Source of the DNA: Eubacteriales bacterium
GTDB taxonomy: Bacteria > Bacillota > Clostridia > Oscillospirales > CAG-272
Direction: 5' to 3'
Assembly (NCBI GenBank): GCA_045635225.1
Contig: JAZRBV010000073.1
Coordinates: 13,864 to 77,863 of the forward strand
DNA: 64,000 nucleotides
Part shown: positions 750 to 41,168 of the stretch, piece after piece
Numbering within the stretch: the first letter of the stretch is position 1
Layout: each line of letters begins with the position of its first letter
The notes under the pieces: generated by a model
What the model saw: the letters and a program-made list of their open reading frames with translations, nothing else
Told to the model about the DNA's origin: nothing
Databases searched by the model: none
Program-made: the position numbers and the translations under genes

Positions 750-1126
750 AGGCGACCTCCTTTCGCATACAGTATAACCGATGTTTTAAATAAAGTACAC
801 CTACCGTTGGTTTAGTGAGGAGAAGTAAACCGTTGGTAGAGCTTATTAACAGTTAAATACTTATTTATCGGTGATATCATTATATCATACCACGGTAAAT
901 AAATCAAGCTTGCGGCTTGGATAAACAAAAGCACCCGAAAAGGGCAAAAGGGTGCTTTGAACGGGAATTTCGCATGCGAATATACCCGCACTCTACGCCT
1001 GACAAGCAAGCTTTTCGATCTCCGAGAGGGGTATGCGAACCCGCACTCCGCGCAATGCGCGTAGCGAGTTCGATGAGAGTCGGTTCCACCACACGAAAAA
1101 GCACCGCCGATTTGGCGGTGCTCGTG

Positions 1127-1493
1127 TGGTGGAACCGACGGGAATTGAACCCGTGTCCAAAAGCCTCTTGATATGACCTTCTCCGTGGGCAGTCTTATCT
1201 TTTAGAATTCCCCTCGGAAAGCGCCGATAGACAGGCTCTCCCTTGGGTAGCCCTTTTGTGCATGACCGATACAAGAGCGAACTCTCGGTGCATGTTCACT
1301 ACTGATTTGACGCACGGCGGGGGTCGTAGTCCTCCCTCGCGGTACGGGCGGCACTTATGGCCGCGTCACAGCTTACGCTGCAAGAGCAACTTTAGTGTTG
1401 TCGTTTATTTTTTAAGTTGGATAGTTTAACGGGATTGTCCGGCCCGCCACGCTTATCATACCTCAAAACCCCTGTCGAAACCTTTGCGGCCCC
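1127..1493 (-). ncRNA. ssrA: tmRNA (transfer-messenger RNA)
   Basis: The minus strand starts GGGGCCGCAAAGGTTTCGACAGGGG at 1493 and ends GGACACGGGTTCAATTCCCGTCGGTTCCACCA at 1127. The internal tag frame AAC GAC AAC ACT AAA GTT GCT CTT GCA GCG TAA encodes ...NDNTKVALAA-stop (1405->1373). Confidence 0.93.
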
Positions 1494-1726: not shown

Positions 1727-3184
1727 TTATAATAAAATGCAGATGAGACCGTTAGATCCTTCGTTGATAATTTTACCTAGCGTCTCGCCCAGCTTCTCGC
1801 GCGACTCGCGAGGCATATGCTCGAGCTTTGAGTTCATTCCGTCGCTCACCATATCGTATAGCGATTTGCCGAACATATTATACTCCCATACACACTCTGG
1901 ATTATCCTCAAACTCCTCGGTGAGGAATTTGATCACCTCCTCCGATTGAGCTTCGCTTCCGACAACGGGGCATAGGTCAGCCTTGATATCCGTCTTTATC
2001 ATATGAATTGAATCTGCATGTGCCGAAACCTTGACTCCGTATCCGTTTGCGGATTTGACCATCCTCGGCTCTTCGAGCTTCAGCTCCTTTGCTGTCGGCA
2101 TAACTATACCGTATCCACTCGCCTCAACGTCCTCGAGCGCGCGCTCGAATCTCTCGTATTTTTTCTTTACCGCCGACAGCTCGCATACAGTCTTCAAAAG
2201 CTTGCCGTCATCTCTGATATCCAATCCGCACATCTCGCTGAGTGTCTCGTAGTAAACCTCACGACCGAGCGGCAACTCGAGCTCTGCCGTGCCGTCGCCG
2301 GCATCGACACTCACCTTGATTATCTCCTCCGAATCGCATAGCGCGCGATCGATATCTCCGATCCGTGTCACGTTTTTCGAGAATGTCTTTATGCTATCGA
2401 GCATTTTCATGCGTAGCGTATGCTCGCGCGGAAGCACCGATGTCCATTCGGGCAGGCGAAAGCAGAGTGCCTTGATAGGAAACTCGCCGAGCACCAGCGA
2501 TAGTATTTCGCGTATATCCTTTCCATCAAGCTCTGCACAGGATACCAGCGCGACGGGTGCACCGTATTTTTCCTCGAGCTCAACAGCGAGCGCATGTGCC
2601 GTCTCGCTATCGGGATATCTTGAATTCAGTATAATGGCAAACGGCTTGCCGTGCTCACGCAGCTCGGAAACGACCCGCTCCTCTGCGGGCAGATAGCTCT
2701 CGCGCGGTATATCCGCAATACTTCCGTCGGTCGTTACCAGCATCGCTATCGTCGCGTGCTCTCCGATGACCTTCGACGTTCCGAGCTCAGCCGCCTCCTT
2801 GAAGGGCATCTCCTCCTCGCTCCAGGGCGTCTTTACCATACGTGTGACGCCTTCCTCCTCGCCTCCGAGAGCACCGTCGACGAGATATCCGACGCAGTCG
2901 ACCATCTTCACGTTGAATTCCGTACCGTCTCCCGTGCGTATGCGCACCGACTCGTCGGGCACGAATTTCGGTTCGGTGGTCATCACCGTCTTGCCGGATG
3001 CGCTCTGGGGCATCTCGTCCTGCGTGCGCTCTCTGTCGTACTCGTTTTCGATGTTAGGGAGCACCGCGCACTCGAGAAACCTATGTATAAATGTAGATTT
3101 TCCCGTCCTTACGGGTCCGACGACGCCGATGTAGATATCTCCGCCAGTCCTTTTAGCTATATCCTTGTAAATGCTGTTTTCCAT
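1727..3184 (-). CDS. spoIVA: Stage IV sporulation protein A (spore coat morphogenetic ATPase)
   Basis: N-terminus MENSIYKDIAKRTGGDIYIGVVGPVRTGKSTFIHRF carries the Walker A motif GPVRTGKST typical of SpoIVA. Length 485 aa. RBS ggaggag is present. Confidence 0.92.
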   Translation of the reverse strand: MENSIYKDIAKRTGGDIYIGVVGPVRTGKSTFIHRFLECAVLPNIENEYDRERTQDEMPQSASGKTVMTTEPKFVPDESVRIRTGDGTEFNVKMVDCVGYLVDGALGGEEEGVTRMVKTPWSEEEMPFKEAAELGTSKVIGEHATIAMLVTTDGSIADIPRESYLPAEERVVSELREHGKPFAIILNSRYPDSETAHALAVELEEKYGAPVALVSCAELDGKDIREILSLVLGEFPIKALCFRLPEWTSVLPREHTLRMKMLDSIKTFSKNVTRIGDIDRALCDSEEIIKVSVDAGDGTAELELPLGREVYYETLSEMCGLDIRDDGKLLKTVCELSAVKKKYERFERALEDVEASGYGIVMPTAKELKLEEPRMVKSANGYGVKVSAHADSIHMIKTDIKADLCPVVGSEAQSEEVIKFLTEEFEDNPECVWEYNMFGKSLYDMVSDGMNSKLEHMPRESREKLGETLGKIINEGSNGLICILL

Positions 3185-17220: not shown

Positions 17221-18342
17221 TCAAAATCCCGTGCAATCTGCACATACGTACCAGCCGTCGCCGTCATCGTGACAGACGACGTATACTTTCCGTAATCCAC
17301 CCGTGCTGAATCCGTAGGTCTTCTTGATTCTCTTGATGCCCGACGAGGTCGTTACAACGGAATCAACAGAGTTTAGCCTTATTTTATCCGGGTCGACACC
17401 CAACCTCTCGAGCTCATCGCTCTCGATGAGATATGAGTAGGCCATTTTATATTCGTCGGTCTCTGTCTCGTTCTTCAGCACGCCGAGCGTTATAGCAAAT
17501 ATACCTCCGATCAGTATCGCGAGCGCGACTGCTCCTGCGCATATCAGAATGATCGCCGTGCGCTTGTTTTTTCTTGCGTTTTCAGTTTGCTTTGTCGGAT
17601 ACTGATTGATTGTATTCACCATTTCCTCGAGCGGCTCTGTTTTCGTTGTGTTCTCTATGTCCTTCTTCGACACCACGACGGTGTTAGCAAGCTGGTCGCC
17701 GATGGATCTTCCGGATGCTATCATCACCACGCCGTCGATATACACGAGAAAGAATAAAAGGCTCCTGAGTATCAGCTGATACCGCATTGCATTGCATCCG
17801 GTCTGCTTGTTCAGCACGACGAGACCGCATATCCTTTTTCCAATTGATCTGCCGCATAGAAGAAAATCACGCAGAATAAAGAGCACGGGATAGAGCAACA
17901 TAATGCCAAGCATCGCGACGGTGGATAGCGTGCTATCCGCGCCTGTAGGAACGAGTGCGGCAACTAAACCAAGCAGTATCAGATCAAAGAGACCTATTAT
18001 ATTCCAATCAAGAACCCACGCTATTATACGCCGTATCTTCGTACCCGCATCGTTATATAACTCTATGCGTCTTAAATATTCATACCGTGCATTCAGTTCA
18101 CGAATCGCGTCGGGGTCGGGAGTCTCTCCGTCTATTCTGTGCCCCGCCATCAGCTCCTCGGGCGTTACCCCGAGTATTTGTGCAAGTGCGAATAATATGT
18201 TCACCCTCGGTTTTGACGTGCCGTTTTCCCATTTTGACACAGCCGCTACGGTAACACCGAGCTGTGACGCAATTTGTGCCTGCGTCAGTCCCCTCTCCTC
18301 GCGGAGTCGGCATACGAAATTCCCAAAATTATAATCGTTCAT
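17221..18342 (-). CDS. XRE-family HTH regulator fused to an RDD-like membrane domain
   Basis: MNDYNFGNFVCRLREERGLTQAQIASQLGVTVAAVSKWENG is an HTH_3 pattern, followed by multiple TM helices. Start chosen at ATG 18342 (RBS agagg) rather than 18384. Confidence 0.8.
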   Translation of the reverse strand: MNDYNFGNFVCRLREERGLTQAQIASQLGVTVAAVSKWENGTSKPRVNILFALAQILGVTPEELMAGHRIDGETPDPDAIRELNARYEYLRRIELYNDAGTKIRRIIAWVLDWNIIGLFDLILLGLVAALVPTGADSTLSTVAMLGIMLLYPVLFILRDFLLCGRSIGKRICGLVVLNKQTGCNAMRYQLILRSLLFFLVYIDGVVMIASGRSIGDQLANTVVVSKKDIENTTKTEPLEEMVNTINQYPTKQTENARKNKRTAIILICAGAVALAILIGGIFAITLGVLKNETETDEYKMAYSYLIESDELERLGVDPDKIRLNSVDSVVTTSSGIKRIKKTYGFSTGGLRKVYVVCHDDGDGWYVCADCTGF

Positions 18343-18524
18343 TATGTAACCTCTGTTTATATATGCGTATATTTTGAGCGACACGGTGCGTGTCCCTTAG
18401 CTAGATTATAACCGAACTACTTGTGAAAGTCAACGGTAATCGTATTGAATATTAGTTGAAATTGCTTTTAAAAGCTCATTTTATTACGGAAGTAAACGAT
18501 TATTTACATTATAAAAGGCTACAT

Positions 18525-18783
18525 CTACGGCTCAAATGCGGACCTACATCCCGCGCGATGCGCGTGATAGGTCGAATCCAAGGATACCCACAGACAAAAA
18601 TACAGCCACCCGAGTGGGTGTGGTAGCAGGGTATTCGCCGGTGGCGAATATTTTTCGCCGAGCCTTTCGTGAGCTAGCTCCCGTCGGCTTCGGCTCAAAT
18701 GCGGACCTACATCCCGCGCGGTGCGCGGGATAGGTCGAATCCTAAGCTATCCACAGACAAAAATACAGCCACCCGAGTGGGTG
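18525..18783. repeat. Imperfect tandem duplication (2 x 96 nt, period 163 bp) downstream of tRNA-Gln
   Basis: 18525-18620 versus 18688-18783 differ at about 7 of 96 positions. Each unit holds a long quasi-palindrome (ggacctacat cccgcgc...gcgcggg ataggtc) and the right half of the tRNA terminator hairpin. The distal copy is followed by a tRNA-Gln 3'-end remnant (18621-18638). Confidence 0.85.
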
Positions 18784-18795
18784 GCTGTATTTTTG
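18758..18795 (-). terminator. Perfect 17-bp hairpin terminator of tRNA-Gln
   Basis: caaaaatacagccaccc-gagt-gggtggctgtatttttg; it overlaps the CCA end by 2 nt. Confidence 0.8.
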
Positions 18796-18868
18796 GCAGG
18801 GGTAGCAGGATTCGGACCTACGAGTGAGGGAGTCAAAGTCCCTTGCCTTACCGCTTGGCTATACCCCT
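18794..18868 (-). tRNA. tRNA-Gln (anticodon UUG)
   Basis: Minus strand: AGGGGTA TA GCC AAGCGGTAA GGC A AGGGA CTTTGAC TCCCT CACTC GTAGG TCCGAAT CCTGC TACCCCT G CCA. The cloverleaf folds by hand and CCA is encoded. Confidence 0.9.
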
Positions 18869-40672: not shown

Positions 40673-40701
40673 TTGACAAAGCGCCAAAAAGTTGATATAA
40701 T
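40673..40701 (+). promoter_or_regulatory. Consensus sigma-A promoter of tRNA-Ser
   Basis: TTGACA (40673-40678), 17 nt, TATAAT (40696-40701). Confidence 0.7.
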
Positions 40702-40734: not shown

Positions 40735-40824
40735 GGAGAAGTACTCAAGTGGTGAAGAGGCGCCCCTGCTAAGGGTGTAGGTCGGGCAACCGGCGCGAAG
40801 GTTCAAATCCTTTCTTCTCCGCCA
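40735..40824 (+). tRNA. tRNA-Ser (anticodon GCU)
   Basis: GGAGAAG TA CTC AAGTGGTGAA GAG G CGCCC CTGCTAA GGGTG, a long variable arm TAGGTCGGGCAACCGGCGC, then GAAGG TTCAAAT CCTTT CTTCTCC G CCA. 90 nt. Confidence 0.92.
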
Positions 40825-40861
40825 AAAATACGGAATACCCACTCGGGTATTCCGTATTTTT
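40825..40861 (+). terminator. Perfect 17-bp hairpin terminator of tRNA-Ser
   Basis: aaaaatacggaataccc-actc-gggtattccgtattttt. Confidence 0.8.
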
Positions 40862-41121
40862 CTTTTGGTGGAGAGAAAAGAAGGATTTAACCTGAGCGCC
40901 GGAGGCGCAGATAACGCAGCGAAGCTGAGTCGGAGAGCTTGCTCTCCAGCGAGGCAAGCAAGTTGCTCCGCGAGCGTTGCGCAAGAGCGCAACAAAGCGC
41001 ACCGCGCCAAAAGCCAAGAGCTTTTGCGGCTCGCAAGGAGTAAGGTTCAAAAAAGACTACTTTTGAAAATCAAAGAATACCCACTCGGGTATTCCGTATT
41101 TTTCTTTTGGTGGAGAGAAAA
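40833..41121 (+). repeat. Direct repeat: two identical 47-nt copies (period 242 bp)
   Basis: gaatacccactcgggtattccgtatttttcttttggtggagagaaaa occurs at 40833-40879 and 41075-41121. The second copy is preceded by AAGGTTCAAA (41042-41051), identical to the tRNA-Ser T-arm at 40798-40807. Confidence 0.9.
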
Positions 41122-41130
41122 ACGGTTTCA

Positions 41131-41168
41131 TAAACCGCAAATCCGATAGAGAGGACTTGCGGTTTTTT
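41131..41168 (+). terminator. Putative terminator closing the tRNA-Ser downstream region
   Basis: aaccgcaa / ttgcggtt stem with an 18-nt loop, followed by TTTTTT. Confidence 0.5.

Follow-up and report, generated by a model that had tools for sequence, protein, structure and literature searches.

Genomic islands and prophages integrate into tRNA and tmRNA genes by crossover in the T-loop or at the 3′ end of the gene. Integrases acting at such genes were reportedly divided by K. P. Williams, in 2002, into sublocation classes and, to our knowledge, each known integrase has one tRNA target. Cis-mobilisable elements (CIMEs) originate from an autonomous element of their host, with which they have att sites in common. 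REP/BIME sequences, REPINs (with their RAYT transposases) and the palindromic mini-elements of IS200/IS605 depend on a single trans-acting enzyme.

The window analysed here, a stretch of 64,000 nucleotides from a genome of the Eubacteriales (assembly GCA_045635225.1, contig JAZRBV010000073.1, positions 13,864 to 77,863 of the forward strand), holds three genes of this kind, on which ARAGORN and Rfam agree: tmRNA at 1127-1493 (minus strand), tRNA-Gln at 18794-18868 (minus strand) and tRNA-Ser(GCT) at 40735-40824 (plus strand). At all three loci a GC-rich hairpin with a T run, the signature of a rho-independent terminator, comes right after the gene; the terminators behind ssrA (stem 1123-1099, minus strand) and tRNA-Ser (40824-40861, plus strand) were obtained from a pattern scan and that behind tRNA-Gln (18759-18793) from sequence and fold. 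A sequence-only reading of this DNA had proposed that an inverted degenerate copy of the gene's own 3′ end follows each of these hairpins, and the sequences do read in that way. The tRNA-Ser copy, placed at 40866-40892, really reaches 40902, and the tRNA-Gln copy, placed at 18730-18755, was delimited here as 18728-18758. The perfect 16-nt arms claimed for ssrA exist, but their coordinates were one base off, the true arms being 1079-1094, which pairs with 1124-1139.

The inverted copies at the three loci are not a product of chance. Local alignment of each reversed 3′ end with its own downstream region gave scores of 25-27; the 47 other tRNA 3′ ends aligned with the same three regions reached at most 19-21, with medians of 14-15. 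When all perfect-stem, terminator-like hairpins of the genome were collected, extended arms (arm complementarity of at least 22) were present at 5 of the 17 directly following a tRNA versus 4 of 309 others, and three of these four exceptions are the tRNA-Lys terminator on its other strand and a palindrome on contig C85 by a tRNA-like 3′ end, counted on both strands. The earlier reading had named absence from other tRNA loci and lack of conservation in relatives as evidence that would count against the pattern. What was found is a systematic pattern that recurs at further tRNAs of the genome (Lys, Pro, Met, Ser(GGA), Glu and Val) and in relatives. The ACCC-ACTC-GGGT terminator loop that tRNA-Gln and tRNA-Ser were said to have in common is also real: the 12-mer occurs five times in the genome, with about 0.4 copies expected by our own estimate scaled to the genome. 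Four copies lie in the Gln and Ser(GCT) loci, two in each because of local repeats, and the fifth lies within an apparent coding sequence. The motif is not general: when the 53 module-bearing tRNAs of relatives were loosely searched for similar terminator motifs, only 2 gave a match. A search for a conserved terminator sequence carried by the element found no enriched stem 7-mers, and loops were alike only in Gln and Ser(GCT).

The inverted copy turned out to be merely the first arm of a larger, non-coding module of about 150-330 bp. Followed in the sense of the tRNA, the gene gives way to its terminator hairpin, then to the inverted copy, which covers the T-arm and the acceptor 3′ strand, and to a short GC hairpin. 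Next come the 5′ half of the T-stem in direct copy, a structured cargo and the 3′ end, again in direct copy; another terminator completes the unit. The ssrA locus contains the following features:

1127-1493, minus strand: tmRNA gene (ssrA) with tag DNTKVALAA (ARAGORN; Rfam RF00023, 160.5 bits); consensus promoter at 1544-1516
1092-1126, minus strand: terminator hairpin right after the tmRNA CCA (scan stem 1123-1099), which would be module-borne in the insertion model
1064-1091, minus strand: degenerate inverted copy covering the T-arm and acceptor 3′ strand of the tmRNA (score 26 for its own gene, cross-tRNA maximum 19)
1047-1063, minus strand: short GC hairpin, the module's apical hairpin, which separates the inverted arm from the direct one
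1036-1046, minus strand: direct copy of the T-stem 5′ half, with TTCG at its end
969-1035, minus strand: cargo belonging to family A (model R1), whose conserved, structured core is about 70 nt long (nhmmer E=6.9e-18; alignment A1 and covariation)
950-968, minus strand: degenerate direct copy of the 3′ end of the tmRNA, beginning with the 3′ half of the T-loop (the displaced original end)
926-955, minus strand: second terminator-like hairpin, presumed to be the ancestral terminator
905-925, minus strand: flank motif TTTATCCAAGCCGCAAGCTTG, found directly after the tmRNA terminator in module-free relatives

Intact counterparts of the direct copy at 950-968 are present in three relatives (L162, L168 and L188). 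At the tRNA-Gln locus the first unit is followed by another:

18794-18868, minus strand: tRNA-Gln(TTG) (ARAGORN; Rfam); promoter at 18916-18888
18759-18793, minus strand: terminator hairpin with the ACTC loop (sequence and fold)
18728-18758, minus strand: degenerate inverted copy covering the T-arm and acceptor 3′ strand of tRNA-Gln (score 25 for its own gene, cross maximum 21)
18715-18727, minus strand: short GC hairpin of the tRNA-Gln module
18702-18714, minus strand: direct copy of the T-stem 5′ half (GTAGGTCCG) of the tRNA-Gln module
18634-18701, minus strand: cargo of the tRNA-Gln module, a family A core (nhmmer E=2.1e-15; alignment A1)
18618-18633, minus strand: direct degenerate copy of the tRNA-Gln 3′ end
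18525-18617, minus strand: second, older unit (blastn self-matches)

The older unit is made of half a terminator, an inverted copy, a GC hairpin, a direct T-stem copy and the truncated start of a core, and self-comparison by blastn gave 93.5% identity with the first unit over 93 bp, with a period of 163 bp. The tRNA-Ser locus bears a cargo of a second family:

40735-40824, plus strand: tRNA-Ser(GCT) (ARAGORN; Rfam); 12/12 promoter at 40673-40701
40825-40861, plus strand: 17-bp terminator hairpin with the ACTC loop (scan stem 40824-40861)
40866-40902, plus strand: inverted degenerate copy of the tRNA-Ser 3′ end, extending into the variable arm (score 35 with a 35-nt query)
40903-41039, plus strand: cargo of about 140 nt from the second family (D), sitting at the apex with the inverted arm on one side and the direct arm on the other
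41040-41051, plus strand: direct copy comprising the 5′ half of the T-stem and the T-loop (AAGGTTCAAA)
41075-41121, plus strand: second copy of a 47-bp perfect direct repeat (first copy 40833-40879; blastn 100% over 47 bp)
41132-41168, plus strand: distal terminator-like hairpin that closes the locus

The 47-bp repeat contains the 3′ part of the terminator and the start of the inverted copy. A ACAAGCTYGCTTGT-type hairpin is common to the family D and family A cargos, and a wider search of the genome for the shared central hairpin motif returned chance near-matches only. The family D cargo is kept, with compensatory stem changes, in same-genus loci L002, L004, L006, L008 and others, and the inverted copy of tRNA-Ser in relatives tracks each species' own T-stem variant.

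The same anatomy exists at no fewer than 13 tRNA/tmRNA loci of the genome. The family A core is present in 21 copies, and 16 of them follow a same-strand tRNA or tmRNA gene at a distance of 76-441 nt. Outside the genome, 132 loci yielded 167 copies, of which 106 stand behind a same-strand tRNA (commonest distance 69-95 nt), 34 are at locus edges and 27 have no nearby tRNA. The core was detected in 88 of 100 genomes of the genus versus only 6 of 150 others in the order, with 0 to 20 copies per genome within the genus. Other cargo types occupy the same slot of the module, and one variant module departs from the rule by using the antisense of the 5′ end of a tRNA, in which TTCGA likewise occurs.

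Around 16 of the 29 same-genus tmRNA loci are filled and around 11 are empty. The flank motif ATCCAAG is located 43-46 nt after the gene in the empty loci, and at 264 (L162), 301 (L168) and 478 nt (L188) in filled ones, where it is preceded by the last 16-19 nt of the gene in near-perfect direct repetition. These direct repeats measure 19 nt in L162 and 16 nt in L168 and are near-perfect in L188; the window copies at 950-968 and 18618-18633 are degenerate. In L168, the terminator after the displaced copy closely resembles the terminator of empty loci. Because filled loci retain the ancestral 3′ end, terminator and flank beyond the module, the module is an insertion at the T-loop that provides a new 3′ end. 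One detail counts against this reading: the right junction has one or two bases more than a conservative T-loop crossover predicts. On this comparative evidence, the inverted copies probably belong to small non-coding hairpin insertion modules sitting in the 3′ ends of tRNA and tmRNA genes. The left boundary of the insertion is in the T-loop of the gene, after TTCG, and the module brings a replacement for the T-stem 3′ strand, the acceptor 3′ strand, the CCA and the terminator, while the original 3′ end, terminator and flank are shifted distally. The last 16-19 nt of the gene are repeated directly on both sides of the insert because the original end is pushed distally, and tandem arrays arise by repeated insertion. 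The possibility that cargo had hit pre-existing empty scaffolds was rejected: an uninterrupted direct copy follows in only 1 of 47 foreign tRNA loci with an inverted copy, and in none of the other 46, in a sample that is biased towards core-bearing loci.

The sequence-only reading had also considered palindrome growth by template switching, taken here as a replication process at terminator hairpins that reverse-copies upstream sequence without any element. Such a process would account for the terminator being the centre of the first palindrome and for a direct-inverted-direct order that resembles fold-back triplications. It fits poorly with an extension that is specific to tRNA terminators (5 of 17, and essentially none of about 305 other terminator hairpins) and with discrete units that are bounded by direct repeats and carry a conserved cargo. 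Since the gene-proximal terminator of L168 is not the ancestral one either, passive growth is considered very unlikely.

As insertions, the modules have much in common with tRNA-gene islands and prophages. Both go into the 3′ portion of a tRNA or tmRNA gene, and in both the insert restores the 3′ end of the gene, the displaced original end stays as a direct repeat and serial insertion leads to tandem arrays. Judged as tRNA-gene integrative elements, the modules show direct repeats of the 3′ segment and empty orthologous sites with a displaced flank, but an adjacent tyrosine integrase is missing. They further differ from islands in being non-coding units of 150-330 bp with no integrase inside or adjacent, in that one related module family serves at least 18 tRNA targets, and in carrying an extra inverted copy of the target and a structured cargo exactly at the junction. 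The direct repeats of tRNA 3′ ends could also be the decayed att scars of prophages or islands that integrated by means of their own tyrosine integrases and were later reduced by deletions to remnants with duplicated tRNA 3′ ends. The genome encodes 15 tyrosine recombinases, including one on contig C2 that is separated by 3.3 kb from the tRNA-Ser(TGA) modules, and classic attR-type tRNA-Ser fragments starting in the anticodon loop occur on C11, C72 and C28. This origin is nevertheless unlikely, as random deletions are not expected to leave a covarying 70-nt core in hundreds of copies, nor to place the inverted arm, the hairpin, the direct arm and the cargo in one fixed succession at 18 or more tRNA types. 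Integrases are not enriched nearby, and the core is absent from the IMG/VR viral contigs and phage records searched.

The near-identity of cores behind different tRNAs also goes against att scars and indicates retargeting. The nearest core from another locus lies behind a different tRNA in 49 of 77 cases, with up to 97% identity, and cores that are 95-97% identical sit behind different tRNAs. Similarity within a Glu/Arg pair ends at the T-arm halves, and within the genome cores that are 84-91% identical have unrelated flanks. The arms, on the other hand, match the adjacent tRNA specifically. In the 81 foreign loci that were scored, the mean score of the inverted copy was 22.1 with its own tRNA versus 12.9 with others (own tRNA best in 74 of 81), and that of the direct 3′ copy was 17.8 versus 10.1 (own best in 80 of 81). 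In L048 and L162 the inverted arm is rather degenerate even though the direct repeats are perfect, and therefore a well-paired stem may be dispensable. A further proposal of the earlier reading was that the inverted copies are relics of convergent pseudo-tRNAs; in the form considered here, the pseudogene and the live gene would once have used the same bidirectional terminator. The terminators are indeed symmetric, with A and T tracts on both sides, and the inverted copy of ssrA retains the CCA. However, it is the last 25-35 nt alone that are copied, always from the adjacent gene and without 5′ halves, and a direct copy of the same segment, split by cargo in nearly all cases, follows within the unit. 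A complete convergent tRNA was found in none of the 29 tmRNA and 9 tRNA-Ser loci of relatives, and such an origin is scarcely credible.

The structure of the core provides information on the molecule in which it works. Its three helices are 91.6% paired versus 30-57% when the partners are slid, and 57 double-change cells were counted versus 21.5 in shuffles. The core pairs in 121 distinct copies comprise 1906 Watson-Crick, 15 G-T, 31 A-C and 80 other mismatched cells, with neither wobble excess nor strand bias. Covariation that is almost purely Watson-Crick, without an excess of wobble pairs, points to core stems that act as DNA hairpins rather than as RNA. The earlier reading had suggested that a read-through strand could pair the tRNA 3′ end with the inverted copy, and such pairing is feasible, with single-strand DNA folds of the three modules giving z-scores of -7.7 to -10.6. 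It had also suggested an RNA processing or quality-control structure, and in the wider form of this explanation the modules are functional RNAs, transcribed by read-through or from their own promoter, whose arms pair with or mimic the tRNA 3′ end for processing, quality control or regulation. Strong single-strand folding, the covarying core and the constant location of modules on the strand of the tRNA speak for such RNAs. Strictly Watson-Crick stems (15 G-T versus 31 A-C among about 2030 cells) do not, and the modules lie behind strong terminators, with no strong promoter-like site inside them according to a consensus scan. Presence varies between species, many complete genomes of the genus and many orthologous loci being devoid of modules, and older units decay. 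No Rfam family matches: the gathering scan of the window recovered the tmRNA and the two tRNAs only, leaving the modules unmatched, and an E-value scan of the ssrA module (700-1130) gave chance-level matches only. A role as functional RNA is consequently improbable.

Regarding the enzyme that might move the modules, reading them in full revealed hairpins and arms between att-type flanks and no space for a recombinase gene. Neither recombinase nor transposase was found beside the three window loci, where Pfam identified HTH, HTH/RDD and DUF5685 proteins, and clustering of 641 ORFs within 3 kb of the 167 foreign copies produced no family present in more than six loci. The 15 tyrosine recombinases could not be tied to the modules. 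The single Y1/HUH transposase gene (PF01797, C43:80749-81105) was rejected as the mobilising enzyme, being devoid of cores and REP-like flanks; the best R1 match in its 3.4-kb locus had E=0.068 and only one weak inverted repeat surrounds the gene. A slightly relaxed core pattern had no match in IMG/VR viral contigs and the ssrA module had none in phage records, and among neighbours, IMG/VR viral contigs and phage records there was no autonomous partner with the same att and core. Full-text literature searches retrieved no description of such elements or of an enzyme that would account for them.

Like CIMEs, the modules have att-type repeat flanks, no recombination genes and a presumed mobilisation in trans; unlike CIMEs, they have no autonomous partner found so far, and the palindromic target copy and covarying cargo are features that CIMEs lack. 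They resemble integron attC sites and the CTX phage attP(+) hairpin in being imperfect palindromes that can fold on one strand into a target-like duplex, in keeping the inverted arm beside the junction and in conserving structure while sequence varies. The junction of the modules (TTCG...GCGAA) differs from the attC R-box and from dif, and their arms copy the tRNA gene. The modules may recombine as single strands. As with REP/BIME, REPIN and IS200/IS605 mini-elements, they are short, non-coding, hairpin-forming and intergenic, exist in tens of copies per genome and are often located behind terminators. Unlike in RAYT systems, the one Y1 transposase gene of the genome is not flanked by cores, and REPs neither copy the ends of neighbouring genes nor associate with tRNA genes.

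These observations allow a mechanism to be outlined for the insertion modules. The cargo occupies the position of the T-loop, and in single-stranded form the arms pair to give a long hairpin that reproduces the duplex target and from which the cargo branches off. It is at the DNA level that the structure would work, whether as a palindrome or through folding of a single strand. The modules are probably non-autonomous, with a recombinase or nuclease acting in trans at the near-universal T-loop sequence, and cargo cassettes may be exchanged between modules on different tRNAs through the T-arm halves, used as short homologies or recombination sites. How arms fitting no fewer than 18 targets arise is not accounted for by the insertion model. 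Segments matching the tRNA (the new 3′ end, the inverted arm and the direct arm) alternate with segments that do not (terminator, GC hairpin and cargo), and therefore simple capture or templating fits poorly. It is conceivable, though doubtful, that the modules represent a class of mobile DNA in their own right. Such non-coding cassettes, shaped as hairpins or dumbbells, would be able to home to the T-loop whichever tRNA or tmRNA gene they meet, with arms written from or selected against the target and an exchangeable cargo, and the enzyme moving them, supplied by the host or in trans, would be one with no previous link to mobile DNA.

The modules form long palindromes and repeats beside tRNA genes and probably break assemblies, since many matches lie 100-250 nt from contig ends; they can also be mistaken for pseudo-tRNAs or prophage att scars. 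Because the arms of one family match at least 18 targets, the targeting rule is not explained by known integrases, and this provides a concrete starting point for searching for the enzyme and for the way in which the arms are made. If the proposed explanation is true, the last 16-19 bases and the terminator of tRNA and tmRNA genes would be replaced by tiny non-coding elements in a large group of uncultured gut Clostridia.

Directly 3′ of each of the three tRNA-type genes in the window lies a symmetric terminator hairpin, and past it a degenerate inverted copy of the gene's own T-arm and acceptor 3′ strand can be read. ARAGORN and Rfam place the genes as follows:

1127-1493, minus strand, tmRNA (ssrA)
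18794-18868, minus strand, tRNA-Gln(TTG)
40735-40824, plus strand, tRNA-Ser(GCT)

This bears out the sequence-only reading, which had described a hairpin followed by an inverted 3′-end copy behind all three genes. The perfect 16-nt arms that it reported at ssrA exist, one base away from where it put them (1079-1094 and 1124-1139), and the inverted copy that it ended at 40892 behind tRNA-Ser begins at 40866 and reaches 40902. The host genome (3.26 Mb, 91 contigs, 48.6% G+C; the window is C73:13864-77863) is that of a spore-former, with SpoIVA at 1727-3184.

The inverted-copy signature was searched for behind each of the genome's 47 tRNAs and behind its tmRNA. For the window's three genes, the reversed 3′ end scored 25-27 against the gene's own downstream region, compared with 19-21 for the best of 47 other 3′ ends. 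The suggested scan of the remaining loci recovered the signature behind tRNA-Lys, Pro, Met, Ser(GGA), Glu and Val as well. Palindrome growth had been proposed as one origin of the pattern. Among 326 perfect-stem terminator-like hairpins of the genome, extended arm complementarity (cut-off at least 22) was found in 5 of the 17 directly behind a tRNA versus 4 of the 309 others, and three of these four exceptions likewise derive from tRNA-type 3′ ends. Extended arms are therefore nearly confined to tRNA-type ends, and general palindrome growth at terminators does not explain them. On another contig of this genome (C85:150-500), a tRNA-like 3′ end that ARAGORN does not call (T-arm, acceptor strand, ACCA) has a terminator, an inverted copy and later a direct copy behind it, which is the module signature.

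Behind each gene the inverted copy opens a larger module, of which it forms the first arm. In the sense of the tRNA, the order is gene, terminator, inverted copy of the 3′ segment, short perfect GC hairpin, direct repeat of the T-stem 5′ half with TTCG at its end, cargo, direct repeat of what remains of the 3′ end, and second terminator; three tRNA-matched segments alternate with three that do not match. Direct repeats can be perfect where the inverted arm is degenerate. Single-strand folds of the three regions are far better than those of shuffled sequences (z = -7.7, -10.6 and -10.5). Units are frequently repeated in tandem, with greater decay in the distal units of the arrays:

Repetition of module units behind tRNA genes
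tRNA-Gln: two units, period 163 bp
tRNA-Glu(CTC): period 169 bp
tRNA-Pro(CGG): period 284 bp
tRNA-Arg(CCG): period 365 bp
tRNA-Ser(GCT): perfect 47-bp direct repeat, 40833-40879 and 41075-41121

In the spacer of about 200 nt between the two tRNA-Arg(CCG) units (L025, G000:C38:46200-46875), GTGATGTT / AACATCAC recurs about eight times, in either orientation, resembling iterons or arm-type binding sites.

The cargo of the ssrA and tRNA-Gln modules is the family A core of about 70 nt, found by nhmmer in 21 copies in the genome, 16 of them 76-441 nt behind a same-strand tRNA or tmRNA. Aligning 19 copies (A1) gives support for three helices, which are 91.6% paired versus 30-57% when the partners are slid, and 57 double-change cells versus 21.5 in shuffles. 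Other genomes contributed 121 distinct copies, in which there are 1906 Watson-Crick pairs, 15 G-T, 31 A-C and 80 other mismatches, so that wobble is not commoner than any mismatch. In an RNA helix under selection, G-U would normally be tolerated on the RNA's own strand. Given that wobble shows neither excess nor strand bias, we read the stems as DNA hairpins or palindromes probably under selection. Behind tRNA-Ser(GCT) the cargo is another and longer one, family D, at the apex between the module's arms (40903-41039). Family D is kept in same-genus genomes with compensatory changes, occurs away from tRNAs too, and has in common with family A an AAGCTYGCTT-type central hairpin. Other cargo is also held in the T-loop slot, such as a 49-nt hairpin and a 165-nt element. 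Two tRNA-Ser(TGA) fragments that start in the anticodon loop (L012, G000:C11:1150-1900; L022, G000:C72:17650-18390) appear as attR-type remnants of another kind of integration; they carry cargo in their T-loops, which on C11 is the 165-nt element, and have no inverted arm.

Comparison of tmRNA loci within the genus demonstrates that modules insert and are gained and lost, that direct repeats accompany them and that the ancestral end is displaced. About 16 of 29 such loci are filled and about 11 are empty. At empty loci, an ATCCAAG motif follows the terminator at +43 to +46; at the filled loci L162, L168 and L188, it lies at +264, +301 and +478, and ahead of it the last 16-19 nt of the gene are copied almost perfectly in direct orientation; in L168 the terminator after this copy closely resembles that of empty loci. 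The insert therefore brought the 3′ end and terminator that the gene now has, and displaced the ancestral ones. On the left, the junction falls after the T-loop TTCG; the target-derived right part starts at the T-stem 3′ strand in family A and at A58 with the 49-nt cargo, and the right junction has one or two extra bases.

Within the genus, 88 of 100 genomes carry the family A core (1-20 copies each); elsewhere in the order, only 6 of 150 do. When 185,579 species genomes were scanned by pattern, the only matches were in metagenome-assembled genomes labelled uncultured Clostridia, Eubacteriales, Oscillospiraceae, Ruminococcus or Bacillota, most of them from the ruminant gut and a few from human samples; among the 167 cores of these loci, 106 have a same-strand tRNA upstream, 69-95 nt being the commonest distance. 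Core matches in metagenome-assembled genomes are often 100-250 nt from a contig end (for example G085:C88:173-279 and G032:C43:131-237), which suggests that repeats of tRNA plus module may break short-read assemblies.

Arm specificity, strict Watson-Crick covariation and cargo exchange are shown too. Over 81 module-tRNA pairs from other genomes, the inverted arm scored 22.1 against its own tRNA versus 12.9 against others (own best in 74), and the direct 3′ copy 17.8 versus 10.1 (own best in 80). The conservation check in relatives that had been suggested gave a positive answer, the tRNA-Ser inverted arm tracking each species' own T-stem variant. One module of the window's genome is built on the antisense of the tRNA-Ser(CGA) 5′ end, a segment that also has TTCGA. 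In 49 of 77 cases, the closest core at another locus belongs to a different tRNA, with identity up to 95-97%. The pair Glu(TTC)/Arg(CCT) shows this most clearly: besides the core, the two loci resemble each other over about 9 nt of T-stem half to its left and 5 nt to its right, after which similarity ends; the inverted arm of the Arg(CCT) module still matches tRNA-Arg. Two tandem Glu units of the window's genome have arms 94% identical and different cargo. These cases indicate that cargo moves, or is exchanged, between tRNA-specific scaffolds. An uninterrupted direct arm is rare (1 of 47 scaffolds, in a sample biased to core-bearing loci). A family A module with tRNA-Gln(CTG) arms (L014, G000:C84:23190-23930) is not beside that tRNA; it lies directly behind an ORF whose C-terminus, by eye, resembles a putative large serine recombinase.

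The genes adjoining the three window loci encode HTH, HTH/RDD and DUF5685 proteins. XRE-type helix-turn-helix genes stand on the same strand behind the ssrA module (141-749, minus) and the tRNA-Gln module (17221-18384, minus), the latter also carrying an RDD domain. No protein family recurs near foreign core copies, and the single Y1 transposase gene of the genome has no cores around it. The core pattern matched no IMG/VR viral contig, nor the ssrA module any phage record. A consensus scan found a strong promoter at each of the three tRNA/tmRNA genes and no strong promoter-like site inside the modules. A second element family occurs directly behind tRNA/tmRNA terminators of relatives, at tmRNA (L163, L170, L177, L182, L184, L189) and tRNA-Ser (L005, L009) loci. 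It consists of a TATCCAAGYCGCAGRCTTGG hairpin with small hairpins arrayed behind it, every one of these flanked by motifs of the GTATATCATC / GATGATATAC type (TGTAATC / GATTACAT in another genus); its left-end hairpin alone remains in the window (905-925).

The modules would insert at the T-loop region of a tRNA or tmRNA gene and restore that gene, being built as long hairpins that copy their target. They may act as folded DNA, in which they would resemble integron attC or CTX phage attP, and would need a trans-acting enzyme that recognises the near-universal T-loop. They behave like tRNA-integrating islands and CIME-type non-autonomous derivatives, but neither the integrase that defines the former nor a cognate autonomous partner of the latter was found here. 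Rfam holds no family matching them, and the literature search returned no description of such modules. In conclusion, the best-supported reading is that the modules are non-autonomous, non-coding integrative elements, and there is a real chance that they constitute a class of their own.
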